Positions 3,224 to 43,217 of a stretch of DNA of 64,000 nucleotides are shown here, in pieces; position 1 is the first letter of the stretch, and each line of letters begins with the position of its first letter. Position numbers and translations under genes: made by a program. Source of the stretch: Escherichia phage MRostami-2023e; the sequence record OQ031495. One strand, written 5' to 3'. The notes under the pieces were generated by a model, which saw nothing but the letters and a program-made list of their open reading frames with translations, ran no database searches and had not been told where the DNA came from.

Positions 3224-3271
3224 TGGACTTCTCCGTCATCACGGGAAGCTGGGGATTTCTCCCCAACCAGA

Positions 3272-3763
3272 TTATTCCCACCAATCAAGAGCAAGAGTTA
3301 CTTCGAACGTTTCAATCTCGTTATTAGAATCCCAATCAAGAGATACTTCACCAACGTTAGTAGGCCACAAGCCGACAATTTCAACTTCTTTAGTGACCGT
3401 TTTAGCATCACGAGCAAATTGACGAACGATAGCAGACTTTTTATATTCAGCAGGTTTACCACCGGTAATTTCATTACCTTGTCCTGCTGCAATACCTTGC
3501 CAATCAACAAATTTCTGACGAATGCTATGAGCATCATCGTTCATTACTGTAATAGTCCAATCGTCGAATGTACGATCACCAGCCACGTTAATTTTACGGT
3601 TCATATAAGAAACAGGAACCTTTTCAACTATCGCAGCAGGAAGAGCCGTAGCACGACACTGGAAGCTAAAGTTTTGCCCAAGATAAGAGATTTCTACTTC
3701 GAACAGGTTAGGGCGAGCGAAATCACCAGATTCGAAGGCACGAGTTACGTCATCTACAAACAT
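3272..3763 (-). CDS. 19: Tail tube protein gp19
   Basis: 163 aa (T4 gp19 163 aa); between sheath and portal genes. Confidence 0.9.
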   Translation of the reverse strand: MFVDDVTRAFESGDFARPNLFEVEISYLGQNFSFQCRATALPAAIVEKVPVSYMNRKINVAGDRTFDDWTITVMNDDAHSIRQKFVDWQGIAAGQGNEITGGKPAEYKKSAIVRQFARDAKTVTKEVEIVGLWPTNVGEVSLDWDSNNEIETFEVTLALDWWE

Positions 3764-3835
3764 ATTAGCCTCTGTAGTAATATGGGCCTAGGATTAACCG
3801 GATGCCCATAGAATTAATTTTTAAACGATATAGTA

Positions 3836-3843
3836 TATTTATA
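3836..3843 (-). promoter_or_regulatory. Late promoter (TATAAATA) for gene 19
   Basis: tatttata on + strand in the 18-19 intergenic region. Confidence 0.6.
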
Positions 3844-3875
3844 TGGGCTACCGAAATAGCCCATCAGGCGTCTTA

Positions 3876-5858
3876 TTAACCACCTACAGCACCAATTAGT
3901 TCGTCGAAATCGGCACCAGTTGCTGTTGCTACAAAGTTCAATGTAATATAATTTATCGAGCGGGCAGGTTGTAAGTAGAAAGTAGCTACAAATTCATTAC
4001 GGTCGATAACTGCTGGGGTGTTATTGGTAGTATCACAAACAACTTTAAAGTTATATACACCACCGAGAGCTTTAATACCCTGTAGATATTGAGAAGTCTC
4101 TGTACGGAAAGAAGAACGGGTAAATGCGTTGTTCAATTCAAACAGGCGATATTTAGATGCTGAACCAATGTTCGTTTTAACCATATTGAACAAACGACGA
4201 ACGTTAATACGGTCAAATGGTGAAGGAACAGAAGTGGCAGTTTTATCACCGTACAGAACATACCCATCACCACCGGTACCAGTAACAGGGTTAATAGCTT
4301 CCTGATACAAACGATCACGTTGTGCTTGGCGAGTTTCAATTGCAAGCTTAATAACGTTAAGAATTTGTCCACGGTTATAACCGGCTGGAGACATCCAAGG
4401 CTGAGAAATATTGTCTGTACGAGCACAAAGTCCAGCGATATCAGCGGCTAATGGAACCCAACGATTCACATCATTATATTTGTCATATTGATATTTATAG
4501 TTACCGTCAATAGCGGCATAAGTAGAACTTACATTAAAGTTATTATCGGTGTAAGTTCCTGACGCAGTACGCCAATCAACCAGATTATCAACTGCACGAT
4601 TAACAGGAATACCGACTATAGTTGCACGTGGCGGTGAGCAAAGAACCAAGCAATCTTGACGAGAATCACCAATTGCTACAACATGTTTCTGAACTGTAGA
4701 AGCAACTTCTAAAGATTCACCTGCACAAGAACCGGCAATAAACAACTGCGCATTAACAGATTCACGGTCAGCAAACAAATCCCAAGCTTCCATTAAATCA
4801 CCAGCGTCAACCGTTTCATTAGATGATAAGCCACCACCCAGTTTGATTACGCCAGAGAAACCTTTTGGCCAACCTTGTGCAGTAGCGAAAATATAATTGC
4901 TTGCGCCTTTAGCAAAGAAATCATCAATAAAGATATTACTACCATAAATATCGCGTTCACCACGTTTAGTAGAAAGAACTACGCTCTGAACTACAGCATC
5001 GTTACGACGAACGATAATTGCATATTGGTCATCAGTTTGTGGGCCATACCCAAAGATTGCTTTAGCAGTAGATGCACGAGTACCACCATCAGGATAAATT
5101 TTTAACTGGGCTGAAGCACCTTTGTCATAGTCTGCTTTAGATACGATTTCAATTTCGAGCTGGTCGCCAAGTTCACCAGGATAAAGAGCAACTACGCCTG
5201 GGACACCATATTTTTTAATAGATTCTTGGAAAGTTAGAGAAGTAATAGCTTCTTCAGAAGTTTCAACTTCAGTTAACAGAATACCCGAATCGGTTACGAT
5301 AGAACCAATTGTAATAACGCCAGAGAGACCAGAAGAAGAACTGGCAACTTCGGCGGTCCAGTTAGAACCCAATGCCGGATATTCATTAATTTCTTTTGCA
5401 CGAGCAATAATTTTACCGGTTGGGATATAAATGTTAAGAATTTTACCATCGACATCAACTGAAGTGACATAACCATCTGCTTCAACAGTTTCGGTCAAAT
5501 ACTTAACGATAATTTTATCACCAACTGCATAGTTACTACCAGTAGCAGAGATTGTGAATTCAATATTGCCTGCTACAGGAGATGAGTTCTTAGCAGTATC
5601 ACGATCAACTGCGCGTACAACACGAAGGTCATTACCATATTGAAGGAAGTTCATAGCAGACATGAAATAATCTGCTGTATCCGTATTAGGAGTACCAAAC
5701 ATATCAACTAATGCAACTTCATCAGTGATTTGTTTAATCTGGAATGCAGGTCCCCATTGGAATTTTCCAGCCAGGGCAGCAGTACCAGTGGAGTTATTAA
5801 CTACAGTACTCTGTACGGTAGTTTCTTTGAGCTCAACGCCCGGAGAGAGAAGTGACAT
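3876..5858 (-). CDS. 18: Contractile tail sheath protein gp18
   Basis: 660 aa (T4 gp18 659 aa); MSLLSPGVELKETTVQSTVVNNSTGTAALAGKFQWGPAFQ... Confidence 0.93.
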   Translation of the reverse strand: MSLLSPGVELKETTVQSTVVNNSTGTAALAGKFQWGPAFQIKQITDEVALVDMFGTPNTDTADYFMSAMNFLQYGNDLRVVRAVDRDTAKNSSPVAGNIEFTISATGSNYAVGDKIIVKYLTETVEADGYVTSVDVDGKILNIYIPTGKIIARAKEINEYPALGSNWTAEVASSSSGLSGVITIGSIVTDSGILLTEVETSEEAITSLTFQESIKKYGVPGVVALYPGELGDQLEIEIVSKADYDKGASAQLKIYPDGGTRASTAKAIFGYGPQTDDQYAIIVRRNDAVVQSVVLSTKRGERDIYGSNIFIDDFFAKGASNYIFATAQGWPKGFSGVIKLGGGLSSNETVDAGDLMEAWDLFADRESVNAQLFIAGSCAGESLEVASTVQKHVVAIGDSRQDCLVLCSPPRATIVGIPVNRAVDNLVDWRTASGTYTDNNFNVSSTYAAIDGNYKYQYDKYNDVNRWVPLAADIAGLCARTDNISQPWMSPAGYNRGQILNVIKLAIETRQAQRDRLYQEAINPVTGTGGDGYVLYGDKTATSVPSPFDRINVRRLFNMVKTNIGSASKYRLFELNNAFTRSSFRTETSQYLQGIKALGGVYNFKVVCDTTNNTPAVIDRNEFVATFYLQPARSINYITLNFVATATGADFDELIGAVGG

Positions 5859-5885: not shown

Positions 5886-8202
<2,317 letters not shown>

Positions 8203-27969: not shown

Positions 27970-28554
27970 ATGACTCGTCCAGCGAGACAGATTTTTAACC
28001 AAACAAATATAACAAACTTTGTTGTGGATATCCCAGATAGTACACGAACTTCAGGTTTTGTGCTCAATGCCCAAACGGCTCCATTGCCAGGTGTGAGAAT
28101 TCCTGTTGTTGAAACTGTTACAGGCACAATGGGGTTAGGACGTGCAATGCGTGCAGGCACCACATTTGAATATGACCCTTTTGTTGTACGATTTATAGTT
28201 GATGAAGACATGACGTCCTGGATGAACATGTATAAATGGATGCTCAGCACTAATAACTATATAACCGGACATAATACGGCCCACTCCGATGGTCCTGAGT
28301 TTGTTACTTTGCACATTTTAAACAACAATAAGACTGAAGTCGTTTTGACGGCAAATTTCTATAAACCATGGATTTCTGATTTGAGCGAAATTGAATTTAG
28401 TTACACTGAAGATTCTGATCCTGCCGTTACGTGCGTAGCAACTATTCACTACGCGTATATGACGATAGAAAAAGACGGCGAAGTCATTGTATCTCAACAG
28501 CCTCGTCAAGCAGCCGAATCTAAATCCATTTCTAGACACCCTTCCTTGCGTTAA
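27970..28554 (+). CDS. 3: Tail completion / sheath stabiliser protein gp3
   Basis: Position between genes 2 and 1; start at ATG 27970. Confidence 0.75.
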   Translation: MTRPARQIFNQTNITNFVVDIPDSTRTSGFVLNAQTAPLPGVRIPVVETVTGTMGLGRAMRAGTTFEYDPFVVRFIVDEDMTSWMNMYKWMLSTNNYITGHNTAHSDGPEFVTLHILNNNKTEVVLTANFYKPWISDLSEIEFSYTEDSDPAVTCVATIHYAYMTIEKDGEVIVSQQPRQAAESKSISRHPSLR

Positions 28555-33798: not shown

Positions 33799-33827
33799 NN
33801 NNNNNNNNNNNNNNNNNNNNNNNNNNN
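33799..33827. other. N-masked run (29 nt)
   Basis: run of n. Confidence 1.
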
Positions 33828-34351: not shown

Positions 34352-34380
34352 TTTACAAACTCTTGAGAGCAGAGTATAAT
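34352..34380 (+). promoter_or_regulatory. Early promoter (tttaca N17 tataat) with -10 in loop of gagagc/gctctc inverted repeat
   Basis: seen in sequence. Confidence 0.55.
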
Positions 34381-34421: not shown

Positions 34422-35015
34422 ATGAACACACTGAAGAAACTTGTTGAATTCATCCGCACTAAACTGGGTACTGCTATGGCTAAAAATCTGACTGTCGAAG
34501 AACAGTATAACGCAGCTGCAGATAAGTTGATTACCCAAATCAAAGAACTAAAAACGGCTTCTGTTAAATCTATTAATGAAGAAAAACGTATTCGCGAACT
34601 TGTTAATGAAAAGAACAAGCAAGCCGCTTCTAAGGAACGTGAAATTCGTAAGCTCCTGGCCGAAGGACAAGATGTTACCATGCATGCTAAGCTTGGTCTT
34701 CTGTATCGTCGAACTGCCGAACAACTTAATACAAAAGCTGACGGGTATGCCGCTATGCGAATTGAAATTGCTCGTAAGGTGGTTGAACTTGACGATGCTC
34801 GTCAGAACCTGGCAATCAAACTCGAATACATTCGCGAAACTCGAGCAGCTAATGCCCTTGGTATCTCTACGGCCGATGATGTAATTGAAATCGCTGCACT
34901 GACTAAGGTTGATATCGAAGACACTCTGACTCGTGTTGAAACGTTCAATGGCACTCCAGCTGGTGTCGAAACCACTTCTGCTGATGTACAAGAATATATT
35001 AACTCTTTGAAATAA
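34422..35015 (+). CDS. Coiled-coil protein (197 aa)
   Basis: ATG with SD aaagg; heptad-rich sequence. Confidence 0.6.
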
Positions 35016-35023
35016 AATAATAC

Positions 35024-35045
35024 GGAGGACTCCGGTCCTCCTTTT
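35024..35045 (+). terminator. Rho-independent terminator
   Basis: ggaggac-tccg-gtcctcc followed by tttt. Confidence 0.7.
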
Positions 35046-35064: not shown

Positions 35065-35667
35065 ATGCGAAACCAAAATAATGATATTGACTCAATGTTC
35101 GAAGAGTTCCGAGATAAGGTAAATCCACCTACGTCTTTAGTTGATTCATTACGATATGTTGCAACTGGGCGTAAATGGTACTGGTCGTCTTCTTATGAGA
35201 CTACTGAGAAAACAGCTAGCCATAGCAGAAAATCTTTATTAGCCCCAGGTATTATGATTCATGATATCGGAGCTATTGCTAAACTAGTTGCAGACCATGA
35301 TATTAGATTCACCGATTTCGTTGCTCCTACATGGTCTGTTTGTTGTTTAAACACCGAATGGGAATATATCAGCGAACGCTCTAAAGATTATTATGGTTTT
35401 AGAGATAAGCTTTTAAGGTCTAACATGTTTTATATTGATACAGAAGTTCTGGTCAATAATAAAAAATACTACTTCACTTTAATCGTCGATTCTGAAACTA
35501 TGTATGAAGGCAAGCCTTTGCTTAAAAGAGTTGATGCTTTAAGTGCTATTGATGCGCTTTATGAAACTATGGTTGTTAGTCCTAATTTCACTAACAATTT
35601 AATCCTTGAGCAATTTATTATGGAATGTAGAGAATATGTCAAAGCCAACCCTATACATGCCAAGTAA
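35065..35667 (+). CDS. Hypothetical protein, C-terminal FIMECR motif (family member 1, soluble)
   Basis: ATG with SD aaaggag; ends ...EQFIMECREYVKANPIHAK. Confidence 0.6.
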   Translation: MRNQNNDIDSMFEEFRDKVNPPTSLVDSLRYVATGRKWYWSSSYETTEKTASHSRKSLLAPGIMIHDIGAIAKLVADHDIRFTDFVAPTWSVCCLNTEWEYISERSKDYYGFRDKLLRSNMFYIDTEVLVNNKKYYFTLIVDSETMYEGKPLLKRVDALSAIDALYETMVVSPNFTNNLILEQFIMECREYVKANPIHAK

Positions 35668-36031
35668 GCCCTGGGCATACGAATACAAACGTAAATTAAT
35701 CCCAAACGAAGTACTATTTGGCCCTATTTTAGCTTTAGCATTTTTAATCTTTATGATTATAGGAGCTGTTTTAGATTCCAATAAAGTTATATCGTCCGAT
35801 GCAGCGTTTTCATTAATGTTCGTCGCACCACTTATTGTACCGTTTTTATTAATGCCTATTAATTGGGTAGGATATTGGCACCAAGGCCGTCATCACAGAG
35901 CTCGAGTTCGTGAGTGGAAAGTTCAGTGCGCAAAAGCCCAAGCTCAGTATGATGAAGCTGTTAAAAAGTATGAATATGAAGAAGCTATGGAATTCGTTAA
36001 GGAGATAAGATGCAAAAGCCACAACTCTTAA
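35636..36031 (+). CDS. Two-TM membrane protein, C-terminal FVKEIR motif (family member 2)
   Basis: Two hydrophobic segments; ends ...AMEFVKEIRCKSHNS; overlaps upstream gene. Confidence 0.6.
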   Translation: MSKPTLYMPSKPWAYEYKRKLIPNEVLFGPILALAFLIFMIIGAVLDSNKVISSDAAFSLMFVAPLIVPFLLMPINWVGYWHQGRHHRARVREWKVQCAKAQAQYDEAVKKYEYEEAMEFVKEIRCKSHNS

Positions 36032-36369
36032 CCGTATGGCCTTCTCTTGGTGAGAACATTCTAATTTTTATTATGAGTATTGGCATGGGATTTGCCTTTG
36101 GATTAGTTGGATTTCTTATTGACGGCGTTGTGTTAGGATTTATAGGGAACACTGGTGGATTCACAGACCAATGGCAGGACTTACGGTATACCCAAGCCTT
36201 TGCATCCATCGCATCCTTTTGTACTGTAGTCTATTTTTACTACGATTTTATAAACCGTAACAAGAAAAATAAAAAGGTTTACGCTTCTCAAATGGTTAGT
36301 TATAATGAACTCCTAGCTAGACGTGAAAATGAAACAATCGAAAACTTTATTAAGGAATGTAGAAAATGA
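36010..36369 (+). CDS. Two-TM membrane protein, C-terminal FIKECR motif (family member 3)
   Basis: SD aaggag; ends ...IENFIKECRK. Confidence 0.65.
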   Translation: MQKPQLLTVWPSLGENILIFIMSIGMGFAFGLVGFLIDGVVLGFIGNTGGFTDQWQDLRYTQAFASIASFCTVVYFYYDFINRNKKNKKVYASQMVSYNELLARRENETIENFIKECRK

Positions 36370-36671
36370 GTAAGATTATTGAAATTAAAGTACCAGAGTT
36401 TAATGATGCCAAATCCGCTTCAGACGCAATTTATAAACTTCTGAATCAAGCTGAACGTATCGAAGAAGAAGCAACAAAGATCGCAGACCAATATGCCGTA
36501 TCATTTTCTGTAGGTGATTATGGTAGCGGTCGTACTTATTATCCTAAGGGTGAAATCGTATCCCAGTGGATGAAAGATGAAATTGAAAATAATGGTGGCG
36601 ATGTTAAGCGTGAAGGTAATGGTTACGTTATTACTGAAGGTGCTTGGGTTTCGTCTTCTGCGTTGTGCTAA
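36366..36671 (+). CDS. Hypothetical protein, paralog A (C-terminus GAWVSSSALC)
   Basis: ORF track; ATGA-coupled. Confidence 0.6.
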   Translation: MSKIIEIKVPEFNDAKSASDAIYKLLNQAERIEEEATKIADQYAVSFSVGDYGSGRTYYPKGEIVSQWMKDEIENNGGDVKREGNGYVITEGAWVSSSALC

Positions 36672-36680
36672 GGAATCATT

Positions 36681-36953
36681 ATGTCTAAAGAACAAACCGA
36701 ACTGGCTGAAGCTGTAGCAAAAATCTATGCAGCTATTGAGGCTGCCAAAGAAATTGCTGATAAACAAAACACAACATTCAACTTGTACCCAGCTTATGGT
36801 ATGGGTGGAACCTATCATTCACCCGGACAGCTTAAAGCCGATCTTGAACGTTGTACAAAAAACGGCTATGCTGAATGGGCCGACGTTTACCAATACGACT
36901 ACAACCTGAGCCTCGAAACTGGTGGTTGGGTTGCATCTTCTCACACTTGCTAA
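36681..36953 (+). CDS. Hypothetical protein, paralog B (C-terminus GGWVASSHTC)
   Basis: ORF track. Confidence 0.6.
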   Translation: MSKEQTELAEAVAKIYAAIEAAKEIADKQNTTFNLYPAYGMGGTYHSPGQLKADLERCTKNGYAEWADVYQYDYNLSLETGGWVASSHTC

Positions 36954-36962
36954 GGAAACCAT

Positions 36963-37160
36963 ATGTCTCGTGAATTGGATTGTGCTGTACGTACGGCAGT
37001 AGCTGCTCTGGAAAACCTGTTCCAAATTGCAACAGAAGAACGCGAAGAAGTTACATTATGGATTGAAGATAACGCAGGTCTGAATCTCCAGGACGCGATC
37101 TCATTATCCCACAATAGTATCACTGTTCAAGGCTGGGTATCATCTAGTTATTCTTGCTAA
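36963..37160 (+). CDS. Hypothetical protein, paralog C (C-terminus QGWVSSSYSC)
   Basis: ORF track. Confidence 0.55.
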   Translation: MSRELDCAVRTAVAALENLFQIATEEREEVTLWIEDNAGLNLQDAISLSHNSITVQGWVSSSYSC

Positions 37161-37164
37161 AACA

Positions 37165-37202
37165 GTTTACAACAAGATAGGGCTATGTTATAGTAGTCCT
37201 AT
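37165..37202 (+). promoter_or_regulatory. Early promoter cassette (gtttac ... tatagt) with near-perfect inverted repeat atagggcta/tagtcctat bracketing the -10
   Basis: seen in sequence. Confidence 0.6.
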
Positions 37203-37222
37203 CAAATTAAATGGAGTTCACA

Positions 37223-37462
37223 ATGATTTATTACGAAAGTATCGGAACCGAAGTAGTTGCTAAAACTATTACTCGTGAAAAGTTTGCAAAGATATTCGAT
37301 ATGCGTTATAAAAAATCTGAACACAAAGGCATCCGATTCGAAGATGCGCACTGTACAATTTGCCCTTATAATGAAGACATAAACGGTACAATCGTTCCAT
37401 TGGTAGAGGCTTCACATGTCGACCTCTGGGATGAATATGATATCGCATGTCGTGAAATTTAA
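37223..37462 (+). CDS. Hypothetical protein (79 aa)
   Basis: ATG with SD ggag. Confidence 0.55.
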   Translation: MIYYESIGTEVVAKTITREKFAKIFDMRYKKSEHKGIRFEDAHCTICPYNEDINGTIVPLVEASHVDLWDEYDIACREI

Positions 37463-37490
37463 GTTAATGAATTAATCCGAGGAAAATATT

Positions 37491-38447
37491 ATGATGTTAG
37501 TTATTGGTTCTCGTGCACTTCACTATCACGGTCTTATTGATTCTAGCGCTATCAAAAATAGTGATTGGGACTTTATTGCGGACCAATGTTCTTGGAATGC
37601 ATTCAAAAATCAAATGATGGGTGTATATGTCCACCAAGATAACCCTGATGTCCAAGTTTTCAAATGCTTCCATAATGGACGCGAAACTCATTTTGAAGCA
37701 TATATTGTTCCGGCAATCACTAACGTTCGCGAACTAGTCGGTGAACTCACTCCTGAAGATTTCACGTCTTCTTATGACCTTTTAAAATACGCCAAGAAAA
37801 ATTTGACTAAAGACCGTTTGAACGGGTTTTACTGGGCAACTCCCGAGATATGTCTTGCAATTAAGATGTCTCATCGTTTCAAGAAAAATAATCCATTCTT
37901 TTTAAAGACTATGAACCATATTCAGTATCTTCGTGGTAAAGGTGTTACACTGAACGATGAACTTACTGAAATTATGCTGAAACGCCAGAAAGAAACCTTG
38001 AACTATGCTCACCCAGTTCTTGACACTTCTAAAAGTGCGTTCTTTAAAGATGACATCTATACATATGACCATGATACTATTCACGAAGCCATTGCGTTAA
38101 CAGGCCGCCCAGCGTATACATTTTATATGAAAGACGGTTCTGAAGTCATGACCTCACGTGAGAAGTTCGAATCGTTACCAGAAATGGTCAAATTGGCCGG
38201 TGTATATGAAGAATCATGTGTACTAGCATTAGAACGTTCTCAGATTCCTAATGACTTTAAAATTAACCCTGAAGCCAGTTTCATGATGGCATTAGAAAAA
38301 GTCTGCACAAGCATCACCTCCGGTTGGTTCCGTGAATACGCATACGAGAACTACAGCAAAGTTGTAAGTATGTATCATAAGCTCGGCAAAAATGATTACA
38401 TTAAACGGTTTAAAGAAAATTTTCATATGGTGAAACCTTTCAAATAA
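37491..38447 (+). CDS. Hypothetical protein (318 aa) with N-terminal G-S...D-x-D signature suggestive of a pol-beta-type nucleotidyltransferase fold
   Basis: VIGSRALHYHGLIDSSAIKNSDWDF; tentative motif-level call only. Confidence 0.5.
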   Translation: MMLVIGSRALHYHGLIDSSAIKNSDWDFIADQCSWNAFKNQMMGVYVHQDNPDVQVFKCFHNGRETHFEAYIVPAITNVRELVGELTPEDFTSSYDLLKYAKKNLTKDRLNGFYWATPEICLAIKMSHRFKKNNPFFLKTMNHIQYLRGKGVTLNDELTEIMLKRQKETLNYAHPVLDTSKSAFFKDDIYTYDHDTIHEAIALTGRPAYTFYMKDGSEVMTSREKFESLPEMVKLAGVYEESCVLALERSQIPNDFKINPEASFMMALEKVCTSITSGWFREYAYENYSKVVSMYHKLGKNDYIKRFKENFHMVKPFK

Positions 38448-38466
38448 CTTCACAAAACTGTTTACA

Positions 38467-38728
38467 NNNNNNNNNNNNNNNNNNNNNNNNNNNNNNNNNN
38501 NNNNNNNNNNNNNNNNNNNNNNNNNNNNNNNNNNNNNNNNNNNNNNNNNNNNNNNNNNNNNNNNNNNNNNNNNNNNNNNNNNNNNNNNNNNNNNNNNNNN
38601 NNNNNNNNNNNNNNNNNNNNNNNNNNNNNNNNNNNNNNNNNNNNNNNNNNNNNNNNNNNNNNNNNNNNNNNNNNNNNNNNNNNNNNNNNNNNNNNNNNNN
38701 NNNNNNNNNNNNNNNNNNNNNNNNNNNN
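38467..38728. other. N-masked run (262 nt), flanked on both sides by gtttaca promoter elements
   Basis: run of n. Confidence 1.
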
Positions 38729-38766
38729 GTTTACACAATTATAGGACTATGTTATAGTAGTCCTAT
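38729..38766 (+). promoter_or_regulatory. Early promoter cassette with perfect 9-bp inverted repeat ataggacta/tagtcctat around the -10
   Basis: gtttac ... gttatagt; RBS catgaggagaatattATG. Confidence 0.6.
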
Positions 38767-38786
38767 TAAAACATGAGGAGAATATT

Positions 38787-39092
38787 ATGAAATTAACAGA
38801 AACCAATCGAATTGGTCTTTTAACAATACTTGCATCACCTTTTTACGCAACTCTTTCTGTTGCGGTATTACAAAAGGCTTACAGTATGGATGGTGTTCCT
38901 GGTTGTATATTTTTATCACCATTTTTGCTATTCGTTGGAGCTTTGTTATTATATGCCACGTCTGGTTTCGACAATAATGTCTGGGTCAATTATAAACGTA
39001 AATTGTCTGAAGAAGAACACGCAGAAGCTCGTAAAAAAGCTATTGAATCTACCAATCTAGAAAATTTCATTAAAGAATGTCGAGGAAAATAA
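38787..39092 (+). CDS. Two-TM membrane protein, C-terminal FIKECR motif (family member 4)
   Basis: ends ...NLENFIKECRGK. Confidence 0.65.
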   Translation: MKLTETNRIGLLTILASPFYATLSVAVLQKAYSMDGVPGCIFLSPFLLFVGALLLYATSGFDNNVWVNYKRKLSEEEHAEARKKAIESTNLENFIKECRGK

Positions 39093-39093
39093 T

Positions 39094-39780
39094 ATGAATA
39101 GTTCTAAAGTGTTTAATAGTCAAGCTCGTGCAGTAGGTGGTTTTGCTCATGCGATTAAAAACGACCAGATTAAAAACGAGCCTATGTTCTTCAACTGTAG
39201 TTTAGAATTTGCTTATAATAACGGCGGTCCTATTACTCGCAGCTTCATCATGAACTTGCCAGATGATTGGAACACCGACCAGGTTGTATTTGATTCACGA
39301 GTCCACATGCTGATGCCTGGTTGGTACCCTGCTATCCCAGGTTATCACCATGACGATGTACCACGCCCGGATATTCCGGTTGGTCAACACTTTATTACTG
39401 CAGGACAACCTGACTATGACAATCCTCGCTATTTGTCTGAACATATTCTTGGTCTTGTTAACGCTGATGTGTGTCCTACTCATTTTGCAACAGGAACTGC
39501 AGAGTTCAGTCAGATTCCTGATGGCGAACTTATCTATCGTCAGTGGCACAAAGAAGTCCTCGAAAAAATTGAAAAAGGCGAACTAGAGAAATGGGAAGCT
39601 CCAGATCGTACTCTTCTTCAGTTTGATTGGCAAACATGGCACACTGGTTCTCGTGCAATTAGTAACGGATGGCGTTGGTTCGGACGTGTATCTCGTAATA
39701 CAGACCGAGTTAAAAAGATTACCAATGAAATTCGTGTCAATGCCCAAGTTTATCTGGAATTCCCTATGGAAGGCTGGTAA
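39094..39780 (+). CDS. Hypothetical protein (228 aa)
   Basis: ORF track. Confidence 0.6.
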   Translation: MNSSKVFNSQARAVGGFAHAIKNDQIKNEPMFFNCSLEFAYNNGGPITRSFIMNLPDDWNTDQVVFDSRVHMLMPGWYPAIPGYHHDDVPRPDIPVGQHFITAGQPDYDNPRYLSEHILGLVNADVCPTHFATGTAEFSQIPDGELIYRQWHKEVLEKIEKGELEKWEAPDRTLLQFDWQTWHTGSRAISNGWRWFGRVSRNTDRVKKITNEIRVNAQVYLEFPMEGW

Positions 39781-40271
39781 TGATTAACAAAACATATTGG
39801 TCTAATATAGACGATGGCAACGAAGGTATTTCATACTATTCAGTAGATTGGTCAGGATGTCCATCCTACTTAGTGAAGCATATTTGCCAAGAATTTAAAA
39901 TCGACCAGCCAGCAGGTATTATCGTGAACAGATACATTAATGGATATCAACCTATCGATGAAGTAATACGAACAACTCAAGCTGAGCTTGAAAAGTTTTT
40001 CAATAAGTGCCAATGGATAACAGGATGGATTATATTTGTACCGTCGGTATGGTTTTTTAGTACTAAGGTGAGTTCTTTCGGTTTTGTTGATATTATTGCT
40101 ATCTTATTAGCATCTACTATCGTAAGTATTATTGGTGGCATCATTGGCGGCGGTACCGCCGCCATCATTATTAATCTTGTTAAAAGTAGTTTACAGGAAC
40201 GTAAAGACAGGATAAAGGCCAAGAATAATGAAGTTGAACGTTTTATTACCGAATGCAGGAATTTGAGATGA
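39780..40271 (+). CDS. Two-TM membrane protein, C-terminal FITECR motif (family member 5)
   Basis: ends ...VERFITECRNLR. Confidence 0.65.
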   Translation: MINKTYWSNIDDGNEGISYYSVDWSGCPSYLVKHICQEFKIDQPAGIIVNRYINGYQPIDEVIRTTQAELEKFFNKCQWITGWIIFVPSVWFFSTKVSSFGFVDIIAILLASTIVSIIGGIIGGGTAAIIINLVKSSLQERKDRIKAKNNEVERFITECRNLR

Positions 40272-42777: not shown

Positions 42778-43217
42778 NNNNNNNNNNNNNNNNNNNNNNN
42801 NNNNNNNNNNNNNNNNNNNNNNNNNNNNNNNNNNNNNNNNNNNNNNNNNNNNNNNNNNNNNNNNNNNNNNNNNNNNNNNNNNNNNNNNNNNNNNNNNNNN
42901 NNNNNNNNNNNNNNNNNNNNNNNNNNNNNNNNNNNNNNNNNNNNNNNNNNNNNNNNNNNNNNNNNNNNNNNNNNNNNNNNNNNNNNNNNNNNNNNNNNNN
43001 NNNNNNNNNNNNNNNNNNNNNNNNNNNNNNNNNNNNNNNNNNNNNNNNNNNNNNNNNNNNNNNNNNNNNNNNNNNNNNNNNNNNNNNNNNNNNNNNNNNN
43101 NNNNNNNNNNNNNNNNNNNNNNNNNNNNNNNNNNNNNNNNNNNNNNNNNNNNNNNNNNNNNNNNNNNNNNNNNNNNNNNNNNNNNNNNNNNNNNNNNNNN
43201 NNNNNNNNNNNNNNNNN
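42778..43217. other. N-masked run (440 nt)
   Basis: run of n. Confidence 1.

Follow-up and report, generated by a model that had tools for sequence, protein, structure and literature searches.

A short C-terminal motif common to the e.5, e.4, e.3 and e.2 proteins of T4-like phages and its putative docking role

Five genes of Escherichia phage MRostami-2023e (sequence record OQ031495), located between positions 35,065 and 40,271 of the 64,000-nucleotide stretch analyzed here (hereafter the window), were found to encode proteins that carry the same short motif, F-[IV]-x-E-[CI]-R, near the C-terminus. The genes are already known and annotated, all as hypothetical, and the new element is the motif that links them. 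We read this motif as a putative docking element by which the proteins that carry it would bind a common partner or assemble with one another, and we give this reading a probability of roughly 0.55. No record of a common C-terminal motif was found in the databases searched, where the five proteins are filed as unrelated hypotheticals under the separate PHROGs 2607, 2604, 2330, 9798 and 2203. A literature search likewise returned no paper on the motif or on the function of the genes, with subscription journals mostly uncovered, so that a prior description is possible.

The five genes and their C-terminal motif

The 5.3 kb around the five genes are 100% identical to Escherichia phage vB_EQ1 and 96-98% identical to many Mosigvirus (RB69-like) genomes, and by sequence comparison the window is a Mosigvirus genome. 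Annotated relatives have the tRNA genes on one side of this region and nudE, e (lysozyme) and denV on the other. A preliminary description of this DNA had placed five open reading frames (ORFs) here, and all five are present on the plus strand exactly where it had put them, each with F-[IV]-x-E-[CI]-R near its C-terminus. The window contains 13 masked runs of N (2257 bases in total, e.g. 33799-33827, 38467-38728 and 42778-43217), which leave the five genes untouched. The same description had not recognized the family, which comparison with T4 makes recognizable as e.5, e.4, e.3 and e.2. The genes are direct orthologues of T4 e.5, e.4, e.3 and e.2 and of RB69 e.5, e.4, e.3, ORF133c and e.2, in the same order between e.6 and nudE/e.

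The first gene (35065..35667, 200 aa) belongs to the e.5 family, its product being 47% identical to T4 e.5 over 199 aa, i.e., the full length (E=3e-65; phrog_2607 at 6e-96), and its place directly downstream of e.6 being kept. The transmembrane (TM) calls were based on Kyte-Doolittle hydropathy with a threshold of 1.6, and the e.5 protein, with a maximum of 1.56, has no TM segment and is soluble, as had been proposed. It overlaps by 32 nt, as in T4, the e.4 orthologue (35636..36031, 131 aa), which is 54% identical to T4 e.4 over 130 aa, matches phrog_2604 at 9e-65 and has its start at 35636 backed by the conserved N-terminal LY[LM]PSKP. The e.4 protein has a hydrophobic hairpin (about residues 20-80, nt 35693-35875) made of two segments that peak at 2.67 and 2.25, and then a charged tail. 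A further overlap, of 22 nt, leads into the e.3 orthologue (36010..36369, 119 aa), a member of the e.3 family by its 35% identity to T4 e.3 (E=6e-22; phrog_2330 at 3e-49). Its hydrophobic region spans about residues 15-81 (nt 36052-36252), its tail ends in ...ENFIKECRK and an ATGA overlap joins it to the next gene (36366). The e.3 family is narrow, with 5 representatives among 1.84 billion proteins in an exhaustive phmmer search of e.3.

The remaining two genes lie further downstream. One encodes an RB69ORF133c-like small membrane protein (38787..39092, 101 aa) with a hairpin at about residues 9-61 (nt 38811-38969) and a tail ending in ...ENFIKECRGK. It was found by tblastn in 149 records, all of Mosigvirus type, and it matches phrog_9798. 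The other is a full-length e.2 (39780..40271, 163 aa; phrog_2203 at 4e-55) whose counterpart is annotated e.2 in RB69. Its soluble N-terminal domain of about 75 aa follows the pattern W..DDG..GI....VDW.xC, with W7, D11, D12, G16, I17, V22, D23, W24 and C27 conserved; a hydrophobic region (about residues 77-135, nt 40008-40184) comes next and then the tail, ending in ...ERFITECRNLR, which is the layout of the e.2 family. The ORF133c-like protein resembles e.2 only in hairpin and tail, lacking the N-domain (phrog_2203, the e.2 family, at a weak E=0.0015; hhalign probability 87% against the C-terminal half of e.2). Four of the five proteins had been described as having an N-terminal two-TM hairpin. 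This two-TM architecture is a reasonable prediction, with the corrections that the e.2 hairpin follows the 75-aa domain and that the second hydrophobic segments of e.3 and e.2 fall below the threshold of 1.6.

The five copies of the motif are FIMECR in e.5 (35614..35631, 11 residues before the stop codon), FVKEIR in e.4 (35993..36010, 6 residues before the stop, with the final Arg-codon base serving as the A of the e.3 ATG), FIKECR in e.3 (36346..36363), FIKECR in the ORF133c-like protein (39066..39083) and FITECR in e.2 (40242..40259). Six-frame translation of the window gave exactly five matches to F[IV]xE[CI]R, all of them in these genes, on one strand and within 17 residues of a stop codon, while 300 residue shuffles averaged 0.13 matches and never gave more than 2. 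A search of the complete T4 genome in every frame for F[IV]xxC[RK] returned exactly three hits, one each in e.5, e.3 and the tail of e.2. The motif is thus real and specific to the e-gene cluster. The T4 tails read ...KFVKECREYVK..., ...KFVKESRCKSQS and ...EFVIDCRKIK, and intact e.2 alleles end in ...NFITECRKLK. All five motifs were rightly placed near the C-terminus by the preliminary description, but the e.5 and e.4 proteins extend 10 and 5 residues beyond the endings that it quoted. Since these two genes overlap the next one by 32 and 22 nt, they run 11 (EYVKANPIHAK) and 6 (CKSHNS) residues past the motif Arg. A candidate sixth copy in the window (28318-28539, minus strand, ending WFIEICRQ...) was rejected as spurious, being antisense to a real gene.

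The conservation of the motif was followed in 40 instances from 12 of the roughly 670 phage genomes with these genes, corresponding to 30 distinct DNA versions, and in 40 of 40 the motif stands 0-25 residues from the C-terminus. As the preliminary description had suggested checking, homologues in other T-even genomes do conserve it, over about ten genera: the motif is retained, in orthologues or in proteins at the corresponding position, by Mosig-, Tequatro-, Gapriver-, Dhaka-, Kanagawa-, Marfa-, Moon-, Biquarta- and Pseudotevenvirus and by a Klebsiella phage. In an alignment of 12 membrane-protein sequences Phe is invariant and Arg nearly so. F, C and R are invariant in the alignments of e.2 and of e.5, where identity to the window protein is 20-37% except in close Mosigvirus relatives. 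The e.2 alignments, covering four to five genera with most members 26-37% identical, have invariant columns only in the N-domain and the motif; at 20-25% identity, the e.5 alignments keep only seven, F, C and R among them. Position 4 is the least conserved of the named positions (E, D, Q, N, G, H, Y, S or L across orthologues), whereas Phe, Ile/Val, Cys and Arg are kept. The common motif is thus roughly Phi-x-x-F-[IV]-x-x-[C or aliphatic]-[R/K].

More distant T4-like phages were surveyed through the genes downstream of e.6, used as an anchor. In most of the distant genomes inspected, e.6 is followed by a soluble e.5-like protein with F-[IV]-x-x-C-[RK] near its end, and after this protein enterobacterial phages have between one and three small hydrophobic ones with [FW]-[IVL]-x-x-[C/I/V/M]-[RK]. 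Klebsiella phage Marfa has FIKHCRE in the e.5-like protein and FLKEIRK in a small hydrophobic one; Citrobacter phage Merlin has FINLCRD, then FVMEMRK and FIENCKNEK; and Klebsiella phage Roth21 has FIKYCRE, then FIKEVRRK, WIRSCRK and WIKEMK. With four motif-variant genes in a row, two of which have Trp in place of Phe, the Roth21 locus (3265-4797) has the largest tandem set observed. Serratia phage WSPA carries a degenerate IIHQARTRV at the homologous place. In Aeromonas phage avDM5 (FVDYCRR) and in RB43 (FIHSCKK, 25 residues before the stop) the e.5-like protein has the motif and no small hydrophobic protein with it was seen. Because Aeromonas- and RB43-type phages carry the e.5 version without membrane paralogues, sequence comparison suggests that the e.5 helix is the older element.

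Codon use within the motif shows on what selection acts. Over the 30 DNA versions Arg is encoded by AGA (9), AGG (4), CGA (3), CGG (2) and CGT (8), Phe by TTT (19) and TTC (9) and Cys by TGT (12) and TGC (9), and the Ile and Val codons also vary. The e.3 and ORF133c-like copies, both ENFIKECR, differ by four synonymous and no non-synonymous changes. These counts bear out the earlier statement that third positions vary while the protein is conserved. Since Arg uses five codons and Phe and Cys both of theirs, the sequences indicate that selection acts on the amino acid sequence of the motif.

Putative docking, common descent and cluster plasticity

The docking reading rests on several cluster proteins presenting the same selected peptide, predicted to be helical, in what would be one compartment. 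AlphaFold2 models place the motif in helix 179-194 of e.5 (predicted local distance difference test, pLDDT, 59; predicted template modelling score, pTM, 0.56) and in the terminal helix 102-161 of e.2 (pLDDT 57). On a helix, the residue at -3 and motif positions 1, 2 and 5 would fall within about 140 degrees of arc, with Glu and Arg at the edges. Furthermore, K and R abound in the tails (8-11 K+R) and N-termini of the membrane proteins but not in the loops between the hydrophobic segments. By the positive-inside rule both ends of these proteins, tails included, are predicted to lie in the cytoplasm (N-in/C-in), together with the soluble e.5. We propose that a C-terminal amphipathic helix, with a face formed by the hydrophobic residue at -3, Phe, Ile/Val and Cys, would dock onto one common partner, or that the helices would bundle with each other. 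The variable small inner-membrane proteins would present the same handle as the older and more widespread soluble e.5, and the first candidate partners would be e.6, the e.5 core, the e.2 N-domain and a host protein.

A precedent for such an arrangement exists in T4, where gp43, gp33 and gp55 have C-terminal tails that bind the gp45 sliding clamp. There, too, one short peptide terminates several unrelated proteins of a single phage, which have a common partner. The sequences differ completely, though, and gp43, gp33 and gp55 are soluble factors of replication and transcription whose partner is known, whereas four of the five proteins here are predicted membrane proteins.

A number of points weigh against docking. 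The confidence of the models is poor, so the helix and its packing are weakly supported by them. Scans of the five proteins with Pfam, NCBIfam and PADLOC gave nothing above threshold, and docking is something that we infer. In the e.4 lineage the Cys position is occupied by I, S, V or M, and some four constrained positions then remain, which is few for a specific docking site. No single gene is indispensable in nature, since T4 has a frameshifted e.2, a phiE142-like contig carries a deletion of e.3 and Dhakavirus-type phages lack e.4, and any common function is thus accessory. Finally, the next ATG lies -1 to +10 nt after the motif in five of the five window genes, and some nucleotide-level contribution has to be allowed for, the motif being nearly always beside the next start.

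Other searches were also negative. Foldseek comparison of the models with the PDB gave no match at E<=0.001, and against viral models it recovered only uncharacterized e.5-like proteins. No significant match came from searching PDB sequences with e.6 or with the profiles of e.5 and e.2, and the PHROG matches of the five proteins are all of "unknown function" or generic "membrane protein". The candidate roles suggested earlier were superinfection exclusion and membrane-level anti-defence. Like T4 Imm, Sp and Ac, the e proteins are small, non-essential, early predicted membrane proteins (e.5 aside) in plastic regions. They have, however, no Pfam or PHROG cross-hits with those proteins, and the motif is absent from all other T4 ORFs. 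Pfam, NCBIfam, PADLOC and PHROG comparisons showed no sequence similarity to Imm/Sp exclusion or to known defence and anti-defence families, and we know of no exclusion phenotype for the e genes.

The alternative that survives best is descent. The tails could be left over from tandem duplication or module shuffling, each serving the folding or stability of its own protein (e.g., helix termination next to the membrane), with no shared partner. Part of the cluster does look like this. The e.3 and e.4 proteins both start with M[SQ]KPxL and align over their full length with an hhalign probability of 91%, as expected of tandem paralogues; their junctions are similar at the DNA level; the ORF133c-like protein resembles the C-terminal half of e.2, as seen above; and natural chimeras and deletions join these genes. 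When the motif was trimmed, the e.3-e.4 pair kept a probability of 31% (E=5e-4) and the other pairs fell below 1% in profile-profile comparison, where the alignments are shallow and the power low. The soluble e.5, in contrast, shares with e.2 ten motif columns and nothing more, and the e.5 proteins of Mosigvirus and Gaprivervirus have only their last 24 aa in common by BLASTP, even if multiple alignment and Foldseek matches to other e.5-like proteins suggest that the e.5 bodies are very distantly homologous. The motif is moreover conserved where the flanking tail sequence is not, and its four residues are kept down to 13-25% identity, also in Aeromonas- and RB43-type phages without membrane paralogues. 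A common constraint accounts for this pattern better than separate structural roles would, and we consider descent alone an unlikely explanation, albeit one to be taken seriously. The earlier wording "family of five" therefore holds for e.3 and e.4, whose paralogy is supported by the sequences, and more weakly for the ORF133c-like protein and e.2, but it overstates common descent for the set, since e.5 and e.2 share the motif columns only. At sequence level the motif behaves as a module on otherwise dissimilar proteins.

The natural variants of the cluster are informative in this respect. In the T4 reference (NC_000866) e.2 is 102 aa long, with one A missing in an A-run (ATAAAAA[A]TCC), and is truncated without its tail, while a full-length e.2 of 162 aa is common in other Tequatroviruses. 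The rest of T4 e.2 is intact in another frame at 67472-67651, in the annotated gap between e.2 and nudE, and ends in ...NNFITECRKLK. The annotated start of T4 nudE (MQEIKM...) uses an ATG formed by the Glu-Cys codons of this e.2 tail, and may be mis-called. In the phiE142-like contig (IMG/VR) an internal deletion at about 6375-6490 removes the hydrophobic hairpin of e.3 and shifts the frame, and the tail DNA remains. Escherichia phage vB_EcoM-UFV05 encodes an in-frame chimera of 106 aa (P0073), in which the first 30 residues of e.4 are joined to the hairpin and tail of e.2, implying loss of e.3 and of parts of e.4 and e.2. The e.5 proteins of Dhakavirus-type phages (178-180 aa) end in ...EYAKEVQNGTA (...FIAECREYAKEVQNGTA) and resemble an e.5 tail followed by the last codons of e.4 (...FIKEVRNGTA). 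These protein tails suggest that e.4 was lost precisely, by recombination between its start region and the similar one of e.3. A viral-contig scan for e.4 alone found two near-identical loci and nothing else. Precomputed Pfam identifiers are PF26876 for e.5 hits, PF26896 for e.2 hits and PF26873 together with PF26896 for the e.4/e.2 chimera; PF26873 probably corresponds to its e.4 part.

Such behaviour is that of accessory, possibly arms-race, genes and fits recombination at repeated junctions. In hyperplastic regions of T4-type phages, modules are shuffled at conserved gene boundaries through cassettes of the promoter early stem-loop (PeSL) type. The gains, losses and chimeras observed here at or near the repeated tail-start junctions are similar, with the difference that the repeated element is coding and under amino acid selection, and is not a promoter-stem-loop cassette.

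Nucleotide-level, nascent-chain and prohead-protease explanations

The position of the motif beside the next start codon raises the question whether it could be the translation-initiation region of the following gene (Shine-Dalgarno sequence, spacer, coupling signal) read as amino acids. The best anti-Shine-Dalgarno match does lie inside motif codons (AAGGAG/AAGGAA, encoding Lys-Glu; CGAGGA; AGGAA). In addition, e.5 and e.4 overrun the next start, the distance from motif to ATG is tighter than that from motif to stop, and in our count a start codon close behind goes with a more frequent Glu at position 4. The register of the Shine-Dalgarno-like element is not fixed, however: it falls on motif codons 2-4/5 in e.5, e.4 and e.3, on codons 5-6 in the ORF133c-like gene and on codons 4-6 in e.2. 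The Phe, Ile/Val and Cys codons add nothing to a Shine-Dalgarno sequence, the synonymous sites vary as described, with Arg codons of either family in use, and the five junctions have no RNA structure of note (z -1.05 to +1.42). The motif is kept apart from a start codon, too. It stands 22 nt before the next ATG in Gaprivervirus e.5 and 28-31 nt before it in Kanagawavirus e.5, with a separate AAAGAGG/AAAGGAG in between, and the e.5-like protein of avDM5 ends in ...FVDYCRRTASKK, FVDYCR being kept, and is followed by a 67-nt spacer with a promoter-like GTTTACA. Thus, with free synonymous sites, a variable register and a motif retained away from starts, a by-product of an overlapping nucleotide element, which the preliminary description had named as the finding that would count against it, is largely refuted as the sole cause and appears very improbable. 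An embedded ribosome-binding site may, in part, bias positions 3-4 towards Lys-Glu (AAG GAR).

A nascent-chain effect has similarly low odds, if not slightly lower ones. In this case the peptide would cause ribosomal pausing or arrest at the end of the ORF, as in SecM or MifM, and tune the coupled next gene. The geometry is suitable, with the motif at the very end of the ORF, the last hydrophobic segment some 20-40 residues upstream and a coupled start codon directly after. On the other hand, e.5 is soluble, its motif stands 5-25 residues before the stop in several genera, and one e.5 motif precedes a spacer and not a coupled gene. To our knowledge the motif has no similarity to arrest sequences.

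The codon and register evidence accords with the earlier idea of a recognition signal. As for the specific signal proposed, a capsid-targeting sequence cut at I-x-E by the gp21 prohead protease or a tail recognized by the head-assembly machinery, the likeness is limited to four residues, F-(I/L)-x-E, at the ...EF(I/L)xE end of the targeting sequence, with the first residues of one internal-protein gene in the window counting in its favour, and the probability is close to nil: that sequence is N-terminal, right after the initiator Met, and the motif is C-terminal in every instance surveyed; cleavage would remove just 2-12 residues; Glu, at the P1 position, is the least conserved residue, while Cys and Arg, irrelevant to gp21, stay; and four of the five proteins are predicted to be membrane-anchored, in another compartment, behind early-type promoter-like sites, whereas gp21 of T4 acts late, inside proheads.

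Neighbouring genes and significance of the cluster

Directly upstream of the e.5-like gene, in all genomes inspected, stands e.6, whose orthologue in the window (34422..35015, plus strand) encodes 197 aa. Few genes of the region are as widespread (1101 phage records by tblastn), and it had no Pfam or PDB match. The e.6 protein is a candidate docking partner. It ends in the conserved ...ADVxEY[IL]xSLK, which is followed by a GC-rich terminator-like hairpin in nine of nine genomes inspected (35024..35041, plus strand, in the window, between e.6 and e.5). This ending is loosely like the motif (aromatic, aliphatic, two free positions, aliphatic, basic, stop), and the resemblance was judged too loose for a sixth, degenerate copy. 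The idea that e.6 is a PspA/ESCRT-III-like protein partnered by membrane proteins was dropped as well, having no Pfam or PDB support.

Early-type promoter-like sites were recognized as consensus matches only. One, TTTACA-17-TATAGT (38730..38758, plus strand), lies just upstream of the ORF133c-like gene, and similar ones lie before e.6 (34352-34380) and before the middle block (37166-37194). The masked run 38467-38728 covers a small gene (the equivalent of APCEc01_170) and the bases just upstream of the first of these sites.

After e.3, three paralogous small soluble proteins (36366-36671, 36681-36953 and 36963-37160) form a second family with a C-terminal motif. They end in ...GAWVSSSALC, ...GGWVASSHTC and ...QGWVSSSYSC, Cys always being the last residue, and they belong to PHROGs 899 and 4882 (unknown function), with no Pfam match. 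Marfa, Merlin, IME523 and Serratia phage WSPA have proteins with this ending in the corresponding position, and T4 has no such genes between e.3 and e.2. Further downstream, a 318-aa protein (37491-38447) matches DUF7277 (E=1e-27) and DUF7275 (1e-77), and the protein is kept within the same block by Gapriver-, Kanagawa-, Marfa- and Moonvirus. Finally, a 228-aa protein of phrog_1843 (unknown function; 39094-39780) ends in ...VYLEFPMEGW and shares an ATGA overlap with e.2. It stands directly upstream of e.2 in Mosig-, Gapriver-, Kanagawa- and Moonvirus, and its Marfa homologue is cut at the locus end. A small hydrophobic protein precedes it in the window (the ORF133c-like protein), in IME523 and in Marfa; the IME523 (...GFAGEIKK...) and Marfa (...NFAKELR) endings of this upstream protein are possible degenerate copies of the motif.

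Going beyond docking as such, we tentatively suggest that the motif could be a portable C-terminal plug, by which the soluble e.5 and a set of fast-evolving, copy-number-variable inner-membrane proteins engage one and the same target; this is a possibility that we would not rate high. The set would comprise e.4, e.3, e.2, the ORF133c-like protein and their counterparts in Klebsiella, Citrobacter and Enterobacter phages. If true, the plug would define a new early membrane module of T4-like phages, composed of e.6, e.5 and the tail-bearing membrane proteins, which might, for example, tether or sequester a factor of host or phage at the inner membrane while the phage takes over the cell or counters its defences.

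In T4, the reference lytic phage, e.2 to e.6 are still ORFs without an assigned function, and the motif makes four to five hypotheticals one testable unit. Even without a binder, it provides a clean case of a protein motif nested in translation-coupling junctions. A partner, if found, would give a function to a module present in hundreds of T-even genomes, and would illustrate how membrane anchors diversify in phages while the docking handle stays fixed.

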